Assembly: GCA_902623255.1 (NCBI GenBank)
Contig: CACNSY010000001.1
Span: forward strand, 17,463-81,462
From: an uncultured Alphaproteobacteria bacterium
Lineage (GTDB): Bacteria > Pseudomonadota > Alphaproteobacteria > HIMB59 > GCA-002718135
Reading direction: 5' to 3'
DNA: 64,000 nucleotides
Position 1 is the first letter of the stretch; every line of letters begins with the position of its first letter. Made by a program: the position numbers and the translations under genes. Positions 43,707 to 50,814 of the stretch are shown one piece after another. Under the pieces are notes generated by a model. That model was not told the DNA's origin and made no database searches. It saw only the letters and a program-made list of their open reading frames with translations.

Positions 43707-44882
43707 ATGAAAGAAAATAATTGGTTTGATCCATTTTATATTCAAAGTCATTTAAATGAAGAAGAAAGTAATATTCAGAAAAATGTAAGAGATTTTTGTA
43801 ATAATGAACTTAAACCTACAGTAGTTGAAAGAAACAGAAAAAATGAATTTGATCAAAGCCTCTATCCAAAATTTGGATCACTTGGAGTTTTAGGACAAAC
43901 AGTTAAAACACATGGTGGGTCTGGTACATCAAATTTAGCGTATGGAATTGTAGCATATGAATTTGAAAAAATAGATAGCAGCTATAGATCTTCAATATCT
44001 GTTCAATCTTCTCTTGTGATACATCCAATTAATGAATTTGGATCTCAGGAACAAAAAGATAAATACCTTCCTTCATTAATAAAAGGAGAAAAAATTGGTT
44101 GCTTTGGTTTGACAGAAAGCGAAGCTGGCTCTGATCCTACTTCAATGAAAACTTCATTTAAAAAAACTAAAGATGGATATATTATAAATGGATCTAAAAA
44201 CTGGATTACGAATGCTCCAATTGCTGACATATTTATTATTTGGGCTATTGAAGAAAACAAAGATCATAAAAGTATAAAAGGTTTTATAATTGAAAAAAAT
44301 ACTGAAGGATTAAATACTTCAACAATAGAAAATAAGACAAGCTTAAAAATTAGTCCAACTGGTCAAATAATTTTAAATAATGTTTTTGTTCCAAATAATT
44401 CGTGTTTGGAAAATACCGAAGGATGGAAATCAGTTTTTAGTTGTCTCAATAAAGCAAGATTTGGAATTAGCTGGGGTGTATTAGGTTCAGCATCCGAATG
44501 TTGGTTGATTGCAAAAGACTACGTAGAAAATAGAATTATGTTTAAAAAAACTTTAGCATCAAATCAATTAATTCAAAAAAAATTATCTGAGATGCAAATA
44601 GAAATAAATCTAGGACTAGCATCATGTCTTTTAAGCTCTAAAGCTCTAGATGAAGGAAAAGAAATCATTAATGCAATTAGTATTTTAAAAAAAAATAACT
44701 GTAAAAAATCTCTAGATATAATTAGAAATGCCCGTGATATGCTTGGTGCAAATGGCCTATTAGAAGAATATCATATCATGAGACATTTGGTTAATTTAGA
44801 AACTGTTAAAACTTACGAAGGTGCGGAGGATATTCATTCACTTATTTTAGGCAAAAATCAGACAGGAATTTCTAGTTTTTAA
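43707..44882 (+). CDS. gcdH: glutaryl-CoA dehydrogenase (acyl-CoA dehydrogenase family)
   Basis: 391 aa. ACAD motifs (GCFGLTESEAGSDP, YEGAEDIH) and a GcdH-like N-terminus (DPFYIQSHLNEEE). Confidence 0.85.
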   Translation: MKENNWFDPFYIQSHLNEEESNIQKNVRDFCNNELKPTVVERNRKNEFDQSLYPKFGSLGVLGQTVKTHGGSGTSNLAYGIVAYEFEKIDSSYRSSISVQSSLVIHPINEFGSQEQKDKYLPSLIKGEKIGCFGLTESEAGSDPTSMKTSFKKTKDGYIINGSKNWITNAPIADIFIIWAIEENKDHKSIKGFIIEKNTEGLNTSTIENKTSLKISPTGQIILNNVFVPNNSCLENTEGWKSVFSCLNKARFGISWGVLGSASECWLIAKDYVENRIMFKKTLASNQLIQKKLSEMQIEINLGLASCLLSSKALDEGKEIINAISILKKNNCKKSLDIIRNARDMLGANGLLEEYHIMRHLVNLETVKTYEGAEDIHSLILGKNQTGISSF

Positions 44883-44986: not shown

Positions 44987-46093
44987 ATGAAAAAAAACTT
45001 TAAAAGACGTGACTTCCTTAAAAAGGCAGGAATTGGTGCAGCAGCTGCAACAGCCGTTTCATCTTTCCCAGCTCCAGCTATTGCAGCTGATAGAATAGAA
45101 GTCAACTGCGTTGCTACTTGGGGTAGAGGCTATCCTGGACTAGGTACAGGAGCTGAAGCTGTTTCTCAAAGAATATCAGACTTAAGTGATGGTCGTATTG
45201 TTGTAAATCACTTTGCTGGTGGAGAAAGAGTAGGACCATTAGATGTATTCACAGAAGTTACATCTGGAAATGCTCAAATGTATAATAGTGCTGACTACTA
45301 TTGGATTGGACAACATCCAGGCTGGGGTTTCTTTGCAGCAGTTCCTTTTGGAATGATAGCAACTGAAATCAACGGATGGATACGACATGGTGGCGGACAA
45401 GAACTTTGGGATGAACTTGGTGATGAATTTGGTTTGAAAAACTTTATGGCTGGAAACTCTGGTGTTCAAATGGGTGGATGGTTTAATAAAGAAATTAATT
45501 CTCCAGATGATTTCAAAGGTCTTAAAATGAGAATTCCTGGATTAGGTGGAATGATGATGTCTAAACTTGGCTTATCTGTTGTAGGTGTGCCAGGTGGACA
45601 AATATATGAAAACTTAATCAATGGAACCATCGATGCAACAGAATGGGTAGGGCCATGGAATGATGAAAGATCAAGATTCTATGAAGCCGCAAAATATTAT
45701 TACTGGCCTGGATGTCATGAACCAGGAACATTAATAACACTAGGTTGTAATAAATCTTGGTTAACAAGTTTAAGTAAAACAGATCAAATGATTATTGAGC
45801 ATGCTTCAACAGTTCAAAATGAAAGAATGTTGACTGAATATAATGCAAATAATGGAGCTGCATTGCAGAGACTTGTTAATGATCATGGTGTTGAGCTAAG
45901 AGAATTCAACGAAGATGTTATCGACGCAATGGGTGAAGCAGCAGAACAACTGTATGAAGAACTTGCTGAAGGTAATGAACTAACTGGAAGAATTCTTGCA
46001 AGTTTTAGAAAATCAAGAAGTGAAATAAGTGGTTGGCTAGAAAAAGCTGACTCAGCTTTCTTTACTCAAAGAAATAGAGTACTTGAAGGTTAA
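44987..46093 (+). CDS. dctP: TRAP transporter substrate-binding protein (DctP family, mannitol/chloroaromatic-type) with Tat signal
   Basis: 368 aa. Twin-arginine signal KRRDFLKKAGIGAAAATA...AIA/AD and a GGGAGGA Shine-Dalgarno upstream. DctQ and DctM genes follow. Confidence 0.88.
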   Translation: MKKNFKRRDFLKKAGIGAAAATAVSSFPAPAIAADRIEVNCVATWGRGYPGLGTGAEAVSQRISDLSDGRIVVNHFAGGERVGPLDVFTEVTSGNAQMYNSADYYWIGQHPGWGFFAAVPFGMIATEINGWIRHGGGQELWDELGDEFGLKNFMAGNSGVQMGGWFNKEINSPDDFKGLKMRIPGLGGMMMSKLGLSVVGVPGGQIYENLINGTIDATEWVGPWNDERSRFYEAAKYYYWPGCHEPGTLITLGCNKSWLTSLSKTDQMIIEHASTVQNERMLTEYNANNGAALQRLVNDHGVELREFNEDVIDAMGEAAEQLYEELAEGNELTGRILASFRKSRSEISGWLEKADSAFFTQRNRVLEG

Positions 46094-46103
46094 AATTTAA
46101 ATC

Positions 46104-47054
46104 ATGTGGGGAGTTTACTCCCCACTTTTTTTTATGAATATCTCAAATATTTCTAAATTTTTTTCAATTTGTTTAATCTTAATAGTATTTGCATTTATAG
46201 TTAATAACTATTTAACTTTCGCAGGTGATTGGCCTGGAGCGTTTACAATATATAATTCAGCAAATATATATTCATCGTTTCAATTTTTTCTTTATCTATC
46301 AGCAATTATTTTTCCATTAATATTTATTTATTATAATAAAAAACTGGATAATTTGACTCTTGCCAATAACCTTGAAAGAGTTAATGATTTTATAATTAGA
46401 TTTGGTTTTTGGTCAGTATTAATAATAGGTATAATTGACGCCATAATTTCTTTTCTAATAATTGAAGGTTTCCTTGAACAAATGATTGGAAAAAGTTGGA
46501 ACATAAAATTTTCAAATAATTCTTTTCGAGCCCCATATGTTCATTTTCCCCTATTATTTGTATCATTAATATTTGCATATTACTTCAGAGCTCTCAATTT
46601 CTACTGGTTAGCATTTCTTGTTGTAATAGCAGAATTTCAAATTGTCATTTTAAGATTTGTTTTTTCATATGAACAAACTTTAATGAGCGATCTAGTGAGA
46701 TTTTGGTATGGAAGCTTATTTTTATTTGGAAGTTATTATACTTTGATTAAAGATGGTCATGTAAGAGTTGATGTTTTGTATACTAATTTTAGTGAAAAAA
46801 ATAAAGCGAGAGTAAATCTTTTTGGAAGTTTATTACTGGGCATTCCACTTTGCTTAACTGTATTCTTTCTTGGGATGTACTGTAAACAATGTGTTTTAAA
46901 TCAACCAATAATGAATTTTGAAACATCTCAAAGTACTCAAGGAATGAATATCAAATATTTAATGGCGGGTTTTTTAATAATATTTGCTCTTACAATGCTG
47001 ATACAATTTATAATTTATTCATTAAGAAGTTTAGAAGTAATTAGAAAAAATTAA
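46104..47054 (+). CDS. dctQ: TRAP transporter small permease (DctQ-like, enlarged)
   Basis: 316 aa from ATG 46104, or 306 aa if the real start is ATG 46134 just after the hairpin/U-tract. The DctQ hallmark LIKDGHVRVDVLY sits in the C-terminal half, and there are extra N-terminal TM segments. Confidence 0.8.
   Translation: MWGVYSPLFFMNISNISKFFSICLILIVFAFIVNNYLTFAGDWPGAFTIYNSANIYSSFQFFLYLSAIIFPLIFIYYNKKLDNLTLANNLERVNDFIIRFGFWSVLIIGIIDAIISFLIIEGFLEQMIGKSWNIKFSNNSFRAPYVHFPLLFVSLIFAYYFRALNFYWLAFLVVIAEFQIVILRFVFSYEQTLMSDLVRFWYGSLFLFGSYYTLIKDGHVRVDVLYTNFSEKNKARVNLFGSLLLGIPLCLTVFFLGMYCKQCVLNQPIMNFETSQSTQGMNIKYLMAGFLIIFALTMLIQFIIYSLRSLEVIRKN
46106..46133 (+). terminator. intra-operon hairpin plus U8 (attenuating terminator) between dctP and dctQ
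   Basis: Stem GTGGGGAG (46106-13) / CTCCCCAC (46118-25) with loop TTTA, followed by T8 (46126-33) that ends at an in-frame ATG (46134). Confidence 0.65.
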
Positions 47055-47056
47055 TA

Positions 47057-49699
47057 ATGGAATTATTTTTTCTTTTTTTATTAATATTTTTAATGGCATT
47101 TGCACTTGCTTCTGGATATCCATTAGCTTTTGCTCTTCCTGGTTCAGCTATTATATCAATATTTTTAGCTGGTTTAGCAGGATATTTAATTGAAGGTAAT
47201 CCAAACGAATATTTTATATCTGATGGTCCTTTTCAATGGCTTAATGCAGGAATAACAAATTTCCGAGGAGTATATTGGGAAGTAGAAAGAGATACATTGA
47301 TTGCAATACCTCTGTTTATTTTTATGGGAATAATGCTTGAAAAATCAAAAATTGCAGAAGACCTATTAATAAGTATGGGGCAATTATTTGGACCTATTCC
47401 AGGGGGATTAGGAATTTCTGTAATTTTTGTTGGCGCATTATTAGCTGCTACGACAGGCATTGTAGGGGCTACGGTAGTTGCGATGGGTTTAATTTCTTTA
47501 CCAGCAATGATGAAAAATAATTATAATAAATCACTTGCGTCTGGAATTGTTTGTTCTTCTGGTACACTTGGTCAAATAATTCCACCTTCAATTGTCCTTA
47601 TTATTTTGTCAGATCAATTAGCATCTGCTTCAGATGCAGCAGATAATATGAGAATAGAAAATTATAAAAACGTAACTGGTTCTACAAATATACCAAGTCA
47701 ATTTAGTGTAGATTCAGTCAGTGCTGGAAATATGTTTTTAGGAGCTTTCTTACCTGGTTTAGTTCTTGTTGGTCTATACATGTTATATGTTTTACTGATT
47801 GGAATATTTAAAAAAGAAGCAGTACCTCCAGTAGAATATGAAGGAAATTATGACAGAGATTTCTTTAGAAGAGTTTTTCTATCGCTTGTCCCGCCATTAG
47901 CATTAATTTTTGTAGTTTTAGGTTCAATATTACTTGGTATAGCAACAGTAAATCAAGCAGGTGCTATTGGTGCTGTGGGTGCAGGTGTGATGGGTGGTTA
48001 TAGATTGTATGATAAAAAAAACAAATATACACCAGCTTTAATAACTATAATTTCATTAATAGTAATAACCTTTATTGTAATAAATTTTCAACTTAATGTT
48101 AAAAATATTTCATCAACATCAGAAATGGTGGCTTTAGTAATTGCAATATTTGCAGTTATATTTTTACTTGTTGGTGTTGTTTGGAGTTTTTGGAGAACAT
48201 TTAAAATAAATAATGTTTTAAAAAATGTAATGATTGAAACAAGTTTAACTACTTCAATGGTTTTTATAATTCTGATTGGGGCTGCAATGTTAACAGCAGC
48301 GTTTAGAGGTTTTGGAGGTGAAGAAATAGTTAAGGATTTTCTCACTAGTCTTCCTGGAGGTTTTTGGACACAATTTATAGTTGTAATGGCAGTTATATTT
48401 GTACTAGGTTTTTTTTTAGATTTCATAGAAATTGCAATTGTTGTTGTTCCTATAGTTGCACCGATACTATTAGCTGAAACATCAGCAAATGTTACTGCAG
48501 TTTGGCTGGGTGTAATGATTGGTGTAAATATGCAAACTTCGTTTTTAACTCCACCATTTGGGTTTTCACTATTTTATCTAAGAGGGGTAGCACCAAAATC
48601 AATAAAAACGACTGAAATTTGGAAAGGTGCAAGTGTGTTTATTGTACTTCAATTAGTTGGTTTAGGTGTAGTTGGATATTTTCCACAATTAGTAAATTAT
48701 TTACCTCTTAGATCTTATTATTCATCAGAAGTTTCTCCTCCTCCAATTAATCCTAAACTTCAAGAATGTTTAATAGATTATTCTTATAATAAATATGAAG
48801 AAAATTTTTCTGAATCAATATTAATTACAAATGACCTAATGTCTTCTAATATTGATTTTTTACCAGAGAAACAAAATAAAAATTTTACTAATATGATTAA
48901 TAACATCAATGATTCAAAAAATTTAATAGAAGAAGTAAAATTATCACGTAAAAATTTTAACGATTACTCTATTAATTATAAGCCACTTCATACAAAAGTA
49001 AGGAATATTGAAAAAAATATTTATAAAAAATTATCAAAGATAGAAAAAATTAAAAAAGAAATTAGACTTGAAACTAAACTTAATGAAATTCAGAAGTTTG
49101 AAGAGAAAATTTTTGAATTAGAAAATGAAATTGAGAGTATAAAAATGACAATTCCTCTAAATTGGGAAGAGGAAAATAATAATTTCAAAACAATATTAGA
49201 TAAATTTAAGAAAAAGAAACTTAGTTATAATAAATCAGTAGATAACTCATTTAATGATTTACAAAAATTTATCAAAATTTTTCAAAATGCTGAAGAATTT
49301 TCTAAATTAGAAATTAATTTTAATGAGTTATTAAATAATGTTAATGAAGAGAGAGATGGAATTGAAGAAATAATTAAGAATTTTGAGAGATTATTTAATT
49401 CTTTCACTGACACTTCAAACATTACAAAACCAATCAAAAAAGCAAGAAAATTGTTGAAAAAAAATTACAATAAGAAAACAGAAGGATTAGCTTTAATTAA
49501 TGAAGCAAAAAAAATATATAATTTGGAAAAAAATTGGAGATTGGATGGTAATAAAATTATCTTAAGTGATTTAATTAAATTATCTGAAACTGGTAAAGAG
49601 ACTTTTGGATTAAGAAAACAAGAGAAACTTAATAAAGAGCAAGCTATTTATTTAGCTTCGTGTAAATCTGTACATGAAGATATTTCTTTATATTTTTAG
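47057..49699 (+). CDS. dctM: TRAP transporter large permease (DctM family) fused to a C-terminal hydrophilic coiled-coil-like extension of about 330 aa
   Basis: A single 880-codon open frame. Residues about 1-545 are polytopic and DctM-like (…FIFMGIMLEKS…, …MQTSFLTPPFGFSLFYLRGV…). Residues about 546-880 are K/E/N-rich with no TM segments. Confidence 0.85.
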   Translation: MELFFLFLLIFLMAFALASGYPLAFALPGSAIISIFLAGLAGYLIEGNPNEYFISDGPFQWLNAGITNFRGVYWEVERDTLIAIPLFIFMGIMLEKSKIAEDLLISMGQLFGPIPGGLGISVIFVGALLAATTGIVGATVVAMGLISLPAMMKNNYNKSLASGIVCSSGTLGQIIPPSIVLIILSDQLASASDAADNMRIENYKNVTGSTNIPSQFSVDSVSAGNMFLGAFLPGLVLVGLYMLYVLLIGIFKKEAVPPVEYEGNYDRDFFRRVFLSLVPPLALIFVVLGSILLGIATVNQAGAIGAVGAGVMGGYRLYDKKNKYTPALITIISLIVITFIVINFQLNVKNISSTSEMVALVIAIFAVIFLLVGVVWSFWRTFKINNVLKNVMIETSLTTSMVFIILIGAAMLTAAFRGFGGEEIVKDFLTSLPGGFWTQFIVVMAVIFVLGFFLDFIEIAIVVVPIVAPILLAETSANVTAVWLGVMIGVNMQTSFLTPPFGFSLFYLRGVAPKSIKTTEIWKGASVFIVLQLVGLGVVGYFPQLVNYLPLRSYYSSEVSPPPINPKLQECLIDYSYNKYEENFSESILITNDLMSSNIDFLPEKQNKNFTNMINNINDSKNLIEEVKLSRKNFNDYSINYKPLHTKVRNIEKNIYKKLSKIEKIKKEIRLETKLNEIQKFEEKIFELENEIESIKMTIPLNWEEENNNFKTILDKFKKKKLSYNKSVDNSFNDLQKFIKIFQNAEEFSKLEINFNELLNNVNEERDGIEEIIKNFERLFNSFTDTSNITKPIKKARKLLKKNYNKKTEGLALINEAKKIYNLEKNWRLDGNKIILSDLIKLSETGKETFGLRKQEKLNKEQAIYLASCKSVHEDISLYF

Positions 49700-50814
49700 T
49701 TAATTTTTTTTTCTATATCCATTACTATATGAATATAATCCATTGCATGACCTGATGGATTTTCTGTTACTTCCTCAAGATAAGCATTATAAAATTGATC
49801 GACAATTTGATTTATCTCATTAGGATTTCTTTTTTCTAATGCTGTTTTAAATACAGTTTCTGACCAACTTCTCATTGTTGGTATTAATGTTTCAGCATAT
49901 TCTCTTGATGACATAGTAGATTTATTTTTATTATAATGAACTTTAAAAGGGCAATCGGTAAACATAGTTTCGCATCTTTTAAGAATCAACCCAGATTTTG
50001 ATATTTCTGAATTAGGGTCATCAAAAGGTTTTCTAAATTCTTCAACAGTTCTATAATGTTGAGTAAAAGTAGCATTAACAAATTCTTCATTTGTAATAAT
50101 CCCTTTTTGCTCTAAATTTTTCCAATGTTTAGTAAAATTATTAAACATGTTATGACCGCCAGTGTTACCTAAATATCGACCCTTTTCATCTATTCCAAAG
50201 TTTATACAAATAAACCTTCCGCCTGGAACTAATTCACTTGATCTATTTAATAAAATTGTTTCCCAATCTTTTAGAGCTTGGATTTTAAATTGTTTTTTTT
50301 CTTCTTCATTTGAACCTACCATATGAACATGGTTATTTATCAAACATGGTCTTTCTGAAACGTAGTGCATTGCAGTCGCAGAGAATCCTAAGGATAAACT
50401 ATTATTAGACATCAATTGTTTATGAAAACCTGTACCACATCCGTGCACGAAAACATTTTCAAATTTATTCTGGTAAGCAAAATTATCATTACCTTGCATT
50501 CCTTGCATCATTCTAAATAAAACTGAAAAGTCATTAGATGCTAAATCAGTATACAACATTTCAATTTCTCTATTGTCTCCAGATTTTTTTATTTTTTCAA
50601 TAATATTAAACCACATTTCTTGACTTGTACCGCCATCAGCACTGCCAAAATCAGCTATTCTAAGCTTGTCAACTTTAGGAATATTTTTAAAGGCTTTTTC
50701 AATTAATACTTCCATTTTATCTATAGCATTTTTTGCCCCTACAGTTTTCTGAGAGTAATAACCCTCACCTTTCATCGATAAAACAGATTGTGTATTTAGA
50801 TTAGGTTTGTTCAT
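49696..50814 (-). CDS. SABATH-type SAM-dependent carboxyl methyltransferase family protein (Methyltransf_7-like)
   Basis: 372 aa with blocks collinear to plant salicylate/jasmonate carboxyl methyltransferases: LSMKGEGYYSQKT (cf. MKGGxGxxSY), RIADFGSADGGTS (cf. IADLGCSSGPN), LYTDLASNDFSVLF (cf. FLNDLPGNDFN), GCGTGFHKQLMSNNSLSLGFSATAMHYVS (cf. GVPGSFYGRLFPxxSLHFxHSSYSLHWLS). Confidence 0.75.
   Translation of the reverse strand: MNKPNLNTQSVLSMKGEGYYSQKTVGAKNAIDKMEVLIEKAFKNIPKVDKLRIADFGSADGGTSQEMWFNIIEKIKKSGDNREIEMLYTDLASNDFSVLFRMMQGMQGNDNFAYQNKFENVFVHGCGTGFHKQLMSNNSLSLGFSATAMHYVSERPCLINNHVHMVGSNEEEKKQFKIQALKDWETILLNRSSELVPGGRFICINFGIDEKGRYLGNTGGHNMFNNFTKHWKNLEQKGIITNEEFVNATFTQHYRTVEEFRKPFDDPNSEISKSGLILKRCETMFTDCPFKVHYNKNKSTMSSREYAETLIPTMRSWSETVFKTALEKRNPNEINQIVDQFYNAYLEEVTENPSGHAMDYIHIVMDIEKKIN

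Follow-up and report, generated by a model that had tools for sequence, protein, structure and literature searches.

In an uncultured alphaproteobacterium of the HIMB59 lineage, the large permease subunit DctM belonging to a TRAP (tripartite ATP-independent periplasmic) transporter carries at its C-terminus a genuine all-alpha domain of about 334 residues, permanently fused to the permease and maintained by purifying selection from SAR11 bacteria to Gammaproteobacteria. The gene lies in a window of 64,000 nucleotides (GenBank assembly GCA_902623255.1, contig CACNSY010000001.1, positions 17,463 to 81,462, forward strand), to whose first letter all positions given below refer. From its sequence features we strongly infer that this tail resides in the periplasm, with its two ends stapled together by a disulfide between Cys571 and Cys869, and taken alone this structural and locational description appears highly probable. 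As for its function, we tentatively read the tail as an accessory module by which the transporter captures, positions or retains its solute-binding protein, a reading to which we assign a probability of about 0.35.

A sequence-only reading of this locus had described a single uninterrupted frame of 880 codons with a DctM portion reaching to about residue 545, and both statements hold: the open reading frame (ORF) 47057..49699 (+) runs from an ATG start to a TAG stop in the ORF listing of the window, and the DctM model PF06808 matches it with E 2e-63 (215 bits, cut-off 23.8) in three stretches spread over approximately residues 12-545, which assigns the protein to the DctM family. The TIGR00786 score of 261.1 bits falls slightly below the cut-off of 268.45 because the match is split by an insertion of about 75 residues comprising two helices. 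This insertion, which is also present in a tail-less DctM of 516 residues from Phaeobacter, accounts for part of the unusual length that had been ascribed to the permease portion (546 residues), whilst the remark on its length as such is correct. The core is 42% identical to tail-less DctMs of 463 and 516 residues, and the tail (residues 547-880, 334 residues; 48695..49696) starts directly behind the last DctM helix (...GYFPQLV/NYLPLRSYY..., the slash marking the boundary), the same point at which canonical DctM proteins and HiSiaQM stop. The tail includes the peptide NFNDYSINYKPLHTK, and no significant Pfam or NCBIfam match was obtained for residues 547-880. Its DNA has a G+C content of 21%, so that base composition predicts 35 stop codons in 334 codons and a probability of about 5e-17 for encountering none; not one of 20,000 shuffled versions of the tail DNA remained open, and the remaining five frames contain 15-68 stops each. 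The earlier argument that such a frame is too long for non-coding AT-rich DNA is therefore sound. The genes dctP, dctQ and dctM are adjacent and co-oriented, all three with Pfam matches, and their order is identical at all related loci.

The fusion is a property of the family. A scan of one genome per GTDB species identified 47 loci, and wherever the whole gene is covered it forms one frame of 880-896 residues from the start of DctM to the end of the tail (33 complete genes, counted without L027, which contains ambiguous bases, and L018, which has an in-frame deletion). A stop or frameshift between permease and tail in orthologues had been named as the sign of an assembly artefact: none occurs in these 33 further complete loci. 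Tail identity to the window is 35-36% in a MarineAlpha5 metagenome-assembled genome (MAG; L039), 26-32% in Pelagibacterales MAGs (L045, L050) and 24-26% in a gammaproteobacterial MAG (L041). The exact window protein is present in a public collection within a 530-member cluster of mostly 880-residue proteins, and a search with the permease core returned 120 relatives among the matches listed, nearly all of 880-881 residues. Named sources of proteins of this length include Thalassospiraceae LMO-SO8, Roseibium, Hyphomonas, Magnetovibrio, Rhodospirillaceae, Puniceispirillaceae, Arenicellales and Gammaproteobacteria. When a profile of nine tails was run against 1.84 billion representatives of 50% identity clusters, 552 were matched at E <= 1e-3 and 110 at E <= 1e-30; all 52 complete-tail representatives inspected end at the last residue of the tail, and the sequence upstream, where present, is the last DctM helix. 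Loci, protein cluster and representatives thus agree in a tail that is conserved and always fused. Two apparent exceptions to the order of DctM followed by tail (P0143 and P0151) proved to be frameshifted high-GC reads, and a search of a plasmid collection with a non-SAR11 tail gave no match.

Searches based on the tail returned only fragments of <=600 residues, which first hinted at a split gene; a protein search with the tail alone yielded 37 proteins of 45-96% identity, all 185-570 residues long. A split gene is ruled out, however, as the contigs of the short relatives show runs of N and frameshifts, and both the core search and the exact look-up give 880-residue proteins; the word index of the tail-based protein search seems to miss the tails of long proteins. 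Scaffolds such as L003 and L006 (Tara and others) contain runs of N in the middle of DctM, where gene callers restart at an internal Met, and the long-read assemblies L001 and L004 contain frameshifts. In L003 the gap lies in the two-helix insertion (window ~47990..48230), probably likewise in L006, where a further gap apparently affects the N-terminal extension of DctQ (window ~46104..46600; inferred from gene calls): such gaps fall in the fastest-evolving membrane segments and produce spurious 'complete' proteins of 470, 480, 489 or 570 residues. The single amplified genome AG-893-E11 (L018) shows an in-frame deletion of 135 residues (DctM residues 235-369; window 47759..48163) between the short repeats LVGL and LVGV, which represents a dead allele or a chimera formed during single-cell amplification. 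An artefact of assembly or annotation, whether a sequencing error that merges two genes or a non-coding stretch open by chance, could only appeal to the many database entries for the tail that are fragments of 350-570 residues; these stem from the gaps and long-read frameshifts just described, the single frame recurs in single-cell genomes and MAGs that are independent of one another, as well as in at least one complete genome of an isolate, and together with the chance probability given above and a substitution ratio far below 1 this already refutes such an explanation.

Pairwise Nei-Gojobori ratios of nonsynonymous to synonymous substitution (dN/dS) are 0.19-0.33 for the tail and 0.00-0.05 for the permease core, showing that the tail evolves approximately 10x faster than the core and is nevertheless clearly non-neutral; the core of the gammaproteobacterial copy is 72% identical to the window protein and its tail 24%. 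Among SAR11-type copies there are no indels in the tail, and none at 45-96% identity; in all 21 search matches (49-96% identity) with a complete tail and an intact LRSYY junction, this motif is followed by 325 residues, exactly as in the window. About 24 positions do not vary in an alignment of 18 diverse non-SAR11 tails, which are 31-42% identical to its first sequence, and neither neutral evolution nor absence from close relatives, the two outcomes that would have spoken against a functional tail, is seen. Residues invariant across the family (tail numbering) are H99, R103, P154, D183, W281, G305, R307, Q309 and L312, plus L56 (F55 in the window), with W157 almost invariant. The two best-conserved segments are the linker S-E-x-x-P-P-P-x-N-P-x-L-Q-x-C and the C-terminus H-x-D-[IVL]-S-L-x-F-COOH; Phe is the last residue in 258 of 260 distinct tails and Leu stands at position -3 in 259. 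The composition of the tail, on the other hand, is not conserved. The window-type (SAR11) tail is Lys-rich with a net charge of +6, and the isoelectric point (pI) ranges from 4.4 to 10.5 over the 260 distinct tails: the richness in Lys, Glu and Asn that had been pointed out is correct for the window, but it reflects SAR11 base composition and is no family trait.

An AlphaFold2 model of the tail built on a nine-sequence alignment is an all-helical bundle, with a predicted local distance difference test (pLDDT) score of 87 and a predicted template modelling score (pTM) of 0.76; its helices span residues 26-50, 58-125, 129-150, 157-197 and 258-288 (tail numbering), plus several shorter ones. The heptad-like runs from which a coiled coil had been proposed belong in this model to an intramolecular helical bundle, and the coiled-coil view is not retained. 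Mean-field direct coupling analysis (DCA) on 349 tails (effective number of sequences 171) is noisy, its top ranks being dominated by N-terminal gap artefacts and its two long-range couplings to the C-terminus being mutually contradictory, and it was used solely to corroborate helix hairpins: the long-range couplings 109-150, 113-146, 112-146, 123-135, 98-156, 45-71 and 49-72 fit the predicted antiparallel arrangement. A full-length AlphaFold2 model, built on a 41-row alignment that is shallow over the N-terminal half, gives pLDDT values of approximately 88-92 for the tail but 30-60 for the membrane part, and is for this reason uninformative on how the tail packs on DctQM.

The statement that the tail belongs to no recognised family is confirmed by searches of Pfam, NCBIfam, PDB sequences and PDB structures. 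No credible Pfam or NCBIfam family was found in the window tail or in 18 diverse tails, no relative was found among PDB sequences, and Foldseek with the tail model against the PDB gave a best E of 0.2 with TM <0.3, the weak neighbours being elongated bundles such as ClyA and AhlC. Neither the known periplasmic helical sensor domains (4HB, HBM) nor the ClyA-type helical toxins show significant similarity to the tail. We also rejected three more specific assignments. A solute-binding protein domain is excluded by the all-alpha fold and by the lack of any match to PF03480 or another solute-binding family in the window tail and the 18 diverse tails. A tetratricopeptide repeat (TPR) protein is excluded as no TPR occurs, even at E <= 1, among the Pfam matches for the window tail or the top matches listed for the 18 tails, and the helices of the tail are 22-68 residues long, unlike the 2 x 17 residues of TPR repeats. 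An ATPase of the SMC/Rad50 coiled-coil type is excluded by the absence of ATPase head domains. The names given to tail fragments at JGI (P0368, P0369, P0374, P0380 and others), namely 'chromosome segregation ATPase', 'DNA repair exonuclease SbcCD ATPase subunit' and 'predicted nucleic acid-binding Zn-ribbon protein', are misannotations arising from low-complexity helical similarity.

The location of the tail follows from the topology of the permease. DctM residues 425-550 align to the very end of HiSiaQM (491-611 of 616); since the DctM N-terminus is periplasmic in TRAP permeases (PMC5812351) and the M domain consists of ten membrane-crossing helices and two non-crossing hairpins (PMC9352664), the C-terminus of DctM is placed in the periplasm as well. 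The two-helix insertion should leave this topology unchanged, as its flanks are basic (YRLYDKKNK... and ...WRTFKINNVLK) and the number of inserted helices is even, so that it begins and ends in the cytoplasm; the loop ahead of the last DctM helix is likewise rich in Lys and Arg (RGVAPKSIKTTEIWK). That a periplasmic domain can sit on the M subunit is illustrated by natural M-P fusions (PMC9352664). Exactly two cysteines are found in 259 of 260 distinct complete tails, and the remaining tail lacks both: one lies 25 residues into the tail, the other 12 residues before its end. Such a pattern would be expected of a structural disulfide in an oxidising compartment, and the putative Cys571-Cys869 bridge would bring together the PPP linker and the ...SLxF-COOH end. 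Of the two locations that the sequence-only reading had considered, the periplasmic one is thus favoured. A cytoplasmic regulatory or scaffold domain, as the Lys-rich SAR11 tail with its net charge might suggest, is very unlikely given this homology-based topology, the strict pairing of the cysteines and the wide range of pI across the family, which marks the charge as compositional.

All tailed loci share a TakP-type DctP with a Tat signal, a long DctQ (305-351 residues), the two-helix insertion in DctM and the tail, a combination that marks a distinct TRAP subfamily. In the window DctQ (46104..47054) comprises 316 residues, in agreement with the earlier remark that it is about twice the usual size when compared to 166-192 residues in tail-less relatives. 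Its true start is probably ten codons further on, at the Met at 46134 (MNISN...), where relatives start, giving 306 residues; cluster members have 306, 316 or 317. The N-terminal extension is conserved at all tailed loci with the motifs WPG, FW..G..D..ISFL and FR....H.PL, and a duplication of DctQ was rejected as its origin, there being no detectable similarity to the canonical half (E 2.3). Tail-less relatives are encoded on plasmids of cultured bacteria, with similar DctPs (37-40% identity): Sulfitobacter (DctQ 192 residues, DctM 463 residues, no two-helix insertion), Qingshengfaniella (191 and 461 residues) and Phaeobacter (166 and 516 residues, insertion present). Long DctQ and tail therefore always occur together in the loci sampled, while the insertion can occur without the tail.

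The DctP of the window has TakP (2hzk) as its best solved relative, at E 1e-72 and with the C-terminal region kept (query 6-358 against chain 2-352 of 365), and the substrates are accordingly likely to be small alpha-keto or related organic acids bound together with a cation. TakP itself is a helix-swapped dimer with cation-mediated binding of alpha-keto acids, for which a permanently membrane-bound mode has been proposed (PMC1839085). The characterised TRAP binding protein of strain HTCC1062, SAR11_0864, binds sulfonates with Ca2+ (PMC11485210). The exact 368-residue DctP sequence of the window occurs on at least 1000 contigs of public assemblies: it is a very abundant, invariant SAR11 protein. 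No tail-specific feature was found in DctP, the proteins from tailed and tail-less systems being collinear, and no conserved extra partner gene stands beside or downstream of the operon in distant loci.

Comparison with known TRAP systems places these features in context. The window shares its three genes and their order with TakPQM of Rhodobacter sphaeroides and the 'mannitol/chloroaromatic' systems (COG4663-4665). In canonical DctP-type systems DctM stops 4-5 residues past its last helix, at a length of 427-516 residues, and DctQ has 166-192 residues, whereas in the window DctM adds the 334-residue tail and DctQ is approximately 165 residues longer. DctM-DctP fusions, for example G4Q5D7 of Acidaminococcus intestini (PMC9352664), also bear a large soluble periplasmic domain on DctM; there, however, the fused domain is the binding protein, whilst the window tail has no similarity to DctP and a separate dctP gene is kept. 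The earlier claim that no characterised TRAP permease with a large soluble domain is known thus needs to be restricted: these natural fusions exist. Full-text literature searches gave no description of a tailed DctM. The TPAT system of Treponema pallidum (PMC5812351) resembles the present one in possessing a fourth, all-helical periplasmic component, TatT, which binds the P subunit; TatT is a separate trimeric TPR lipoprotein, while the window tail is covalently attached to DctM, has long helices and shows no TPR signature. HiSiaQM (PMC9352664) similarly adds membrane helices to the basic Q4 + M architecture, although it adds a single connecting helix and no soluble domain, compared to separate Q and M genes, about six added helices and a periplasmic domain in the window.

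We favour a docking function for the tail because its probable attachment is on the periplasmic side, the face on which the binding protein has to land, next to a larger immobile membrane platform, and because TakP is a dimer with a proposed membrane-bound mode. Tail and enlarged DctQ/DctM platform would then form one accessory module at the docking face, by which the TakP-type binding protein, itself probably dimeric, would be captured, positioned or retained on the transporter; substrate could thereby be handed over more efficiently to the elevator domain in oligotrophic seawater, where substrate levels are very low. Several points weigh against this. No direct evidence connects the tail with the binding protein, and the collinear DctPs of tailed and tail-less systems contain no tail-specific insertion. 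TakP-like DctPs pair with ordinary DctQM in Sulfitobacter, Phaeobacter and Qingshengfaniella, which indicates that the tail is dispensable for such binding proteins. The full-length AlphaFold2 model assigns low confidence to both linker and C-terminal motif and thus lends no support to packing of the tail onto DctQM, and a bulky domain on the docking face could equally hinder docking. A bolder form of the same idea, which we consider rather unlikely, makes the tail and the DctQ extension a fourth functional element of the TRAP system: a periplasmic cradle keeping a dimeric TakP-type binding protein permanently docked, in which one protomer would collect periplasmic substrate and transfer it to its partner on the elevator, corresponding to the 'membrane-bound pathway' proposed by Gonin et al. 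2007 (PMC1839085). If true, the ocean's most abundant heterotrophs would possess a tethered-receptor machine in place of a diffusible-receptor transporter.

The strongest competitor to docking, possible though less probable, is a purely structural function in which the tail, along with the four additional membrane helices of DctQ and the two of DctM, enlarges and stiffens the immobile scaffold relative to which the elevator domain moves, or drives oligomerisation of DctQM, without contacting the binding protein. The constant co-occurrence of long DctQ and tail fits this explanation, as do the lack of a tail-specific feature in DctP, the concentration of conservation at the two ends of the tail, which adjoin the membrane domain, and the understanding of DctQ as a scaffold extension in TRAP transporters (PMC9971032). 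A soluble bundle of 334 residues with invariant polar H99, R103, D183, R307 and Q309 is nevertheless a great deal of protein for a passive brace; furthermore, Phaeobacter has the two-helix insertion without the tail, and there is no evidence for self-association.

It is unlikely that the tail acts as a regulatory or sensory module, with the bundle binding a small molecule or the free ...SLxF-COOH end serving as a plug or as a ligand for a periplasmic protein such as a PDZ-domain protease, so that it would gate the access of the binding protein or couple the transporter to envelope quality control. The invariant Arg, His, Gln, Asp and Trp residues could conceivably line a pocket, and the C-terminus is conserved to its last residue, both in the inspected complete-tail representatives and in the nearly universal terminal Phe. 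A hydrophobic-x-Phe-COOH end resembles the C-termini of outer-membrane proteins that are read by DegS-type PDZ domains, a resemblance we take as a lead only. Against this, searches of Pfam and the PDB show no resemblance of the tail to any known periplasmic sensor fold or family, and the distant loci lack a conserved partner gene beside the operon.

Less probable still is an envelope-spanning stalk, in which helices of approximately 100 Å would cross the periplasm to peptidoglycan or an outer-membrane channel and place the transporter under a porin: the 68-residue helix of the model, its several helices of 30-40 residues and the elongated bundles among the weak Foldseek neighbours are compatible with it, but the putative disulfide would join the N- and C-termini, no peptidoglycan-binding or outer-membrane-docking motif appeared in Pfam-level scans of the tails, and DCA pairs helix 26-50 solely with the first part of the long helix, a weak signal by which the two termini would lie around the middle of the rod, probably along with most of the invariant residues, and which so suggests a bar lying along the membrane.

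The coordinates of the individual features are collected in Table 1. Two neighbouring genes flank the operon. On the reverse strand, 49696..50814 encodes a convergent SABATH-type S-adenosylmethionine-dependent carboxyl methyltransferase (Pfam Methyltransf_7, E 5e-33), whose end overlaps the DctM stop by 4 nt; this neighbour is also present at L001, L002 and L005, a Methyltransf_7 gene lies near the tailed TRAP operon of a distant lineage (L059), and it may be linked to the organic-acid substrate. Immediately upstream of dctP, 43707..44882 (+) encodes an acyl-CoA dehydrogenase, syntenic in SAR11-type loci (L001, L003), that may be tied to catabolism of the transported acid.

Table 1. Features of the tailed TRAP operon in window coordinates.
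Feature	Coordinates	Strand	Evidence
DctP solute-binding protein, TakP (alpha-keto-acid) type, with twin-arginine signal peptide	44987..46093	+	Pfam DctP E 3e-49; TAT signal
N-terminal extension of DctQ, ~165 residues, about four predicted transmembrane helices	46104..46598	+	no counterpart in canonical DctQ of 166-192 residues
Canonical four-helix part of DctQ	46599..47054	+	Pfam DctQ residues 180-305, E 4e-11; aligns to Sulfitobacter DctQ, E 2e-19
DctM permease core, residues 1-546	47057..48694	+	Pfam DctM E 2e-63; TIGR00786 261 bits
Two-helix insertion in DctM, residues ~315-392 (~75 residues), Lys/Arg-rich ends	47999..48232	+	gap against the 463-residue Sulfitobacter DctM
Linker NYLPLRSYYSSEVSPPPINPKLQEC with invariant PPP-x-N and first conserved cysteine, Cys571 (48767..48769)	48695..48769	+	columns invariant in alignments A1-A4; low pLDDT in both AlphaFold2 models
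Tail bundle, all-helical, with the second of the conserved cysteines, Cys869 (49661..49663)	48770..49672	+	AlphaFold2 pLDDT 87
Extreme C-terminus H-x-D-[IVL]-S-L-x-F-COOH (HEDISLYF in the window) and stop codon	49673..49699	+	strictly conserved

The tailed sequences themselves are not new, since databases already carry them under the name 'TRAP transporter large permease subunit' or under that of a 'C4-dicarboxylate ABC transporter permease'; the domain architecture, in turn, is real, conserved and undescribed. The sequence-only reading had allowed that a long-tailed DctM might already be catalogued, yet the tail is covered by neither a Pfam nor an NCBIfam model, and full-text literature searches gave no description of it: the domain is mentioned neither in a study of SAR11 TRAP diversity (PMC11796062) nor in the searched portion of the main text of the SAR11 binding-protein survey (PMC11485210). 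The tail has no family model and is in some entries mislabelled as 'chromosome segregation ATPase'; with the family defined, hundreds of marine sequences could be annotated better. The tailed system is found in SAR11 (Pelagibacteraceae) and in marine oligotrophs such as SAR116, Rhodospirillales and Arenicellales. The expressed proteome of marine oligotroph cells is dominated by transport proteins, and that a streamlined genome retains approximately 1.5 kb of additional coding DNA in a single transporter implies a real contribution to fitness. To our knowledge, all solved TRAP permeases present an essentially flat periplasmic face where the binding protein lands, and a conserved 37-kDa domain on this face, together with six extra membrane helices, must be reconciled with the flat-face mechanism. 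The tailed system may thus show a new coupling of the binding protein to an elevator transporter.

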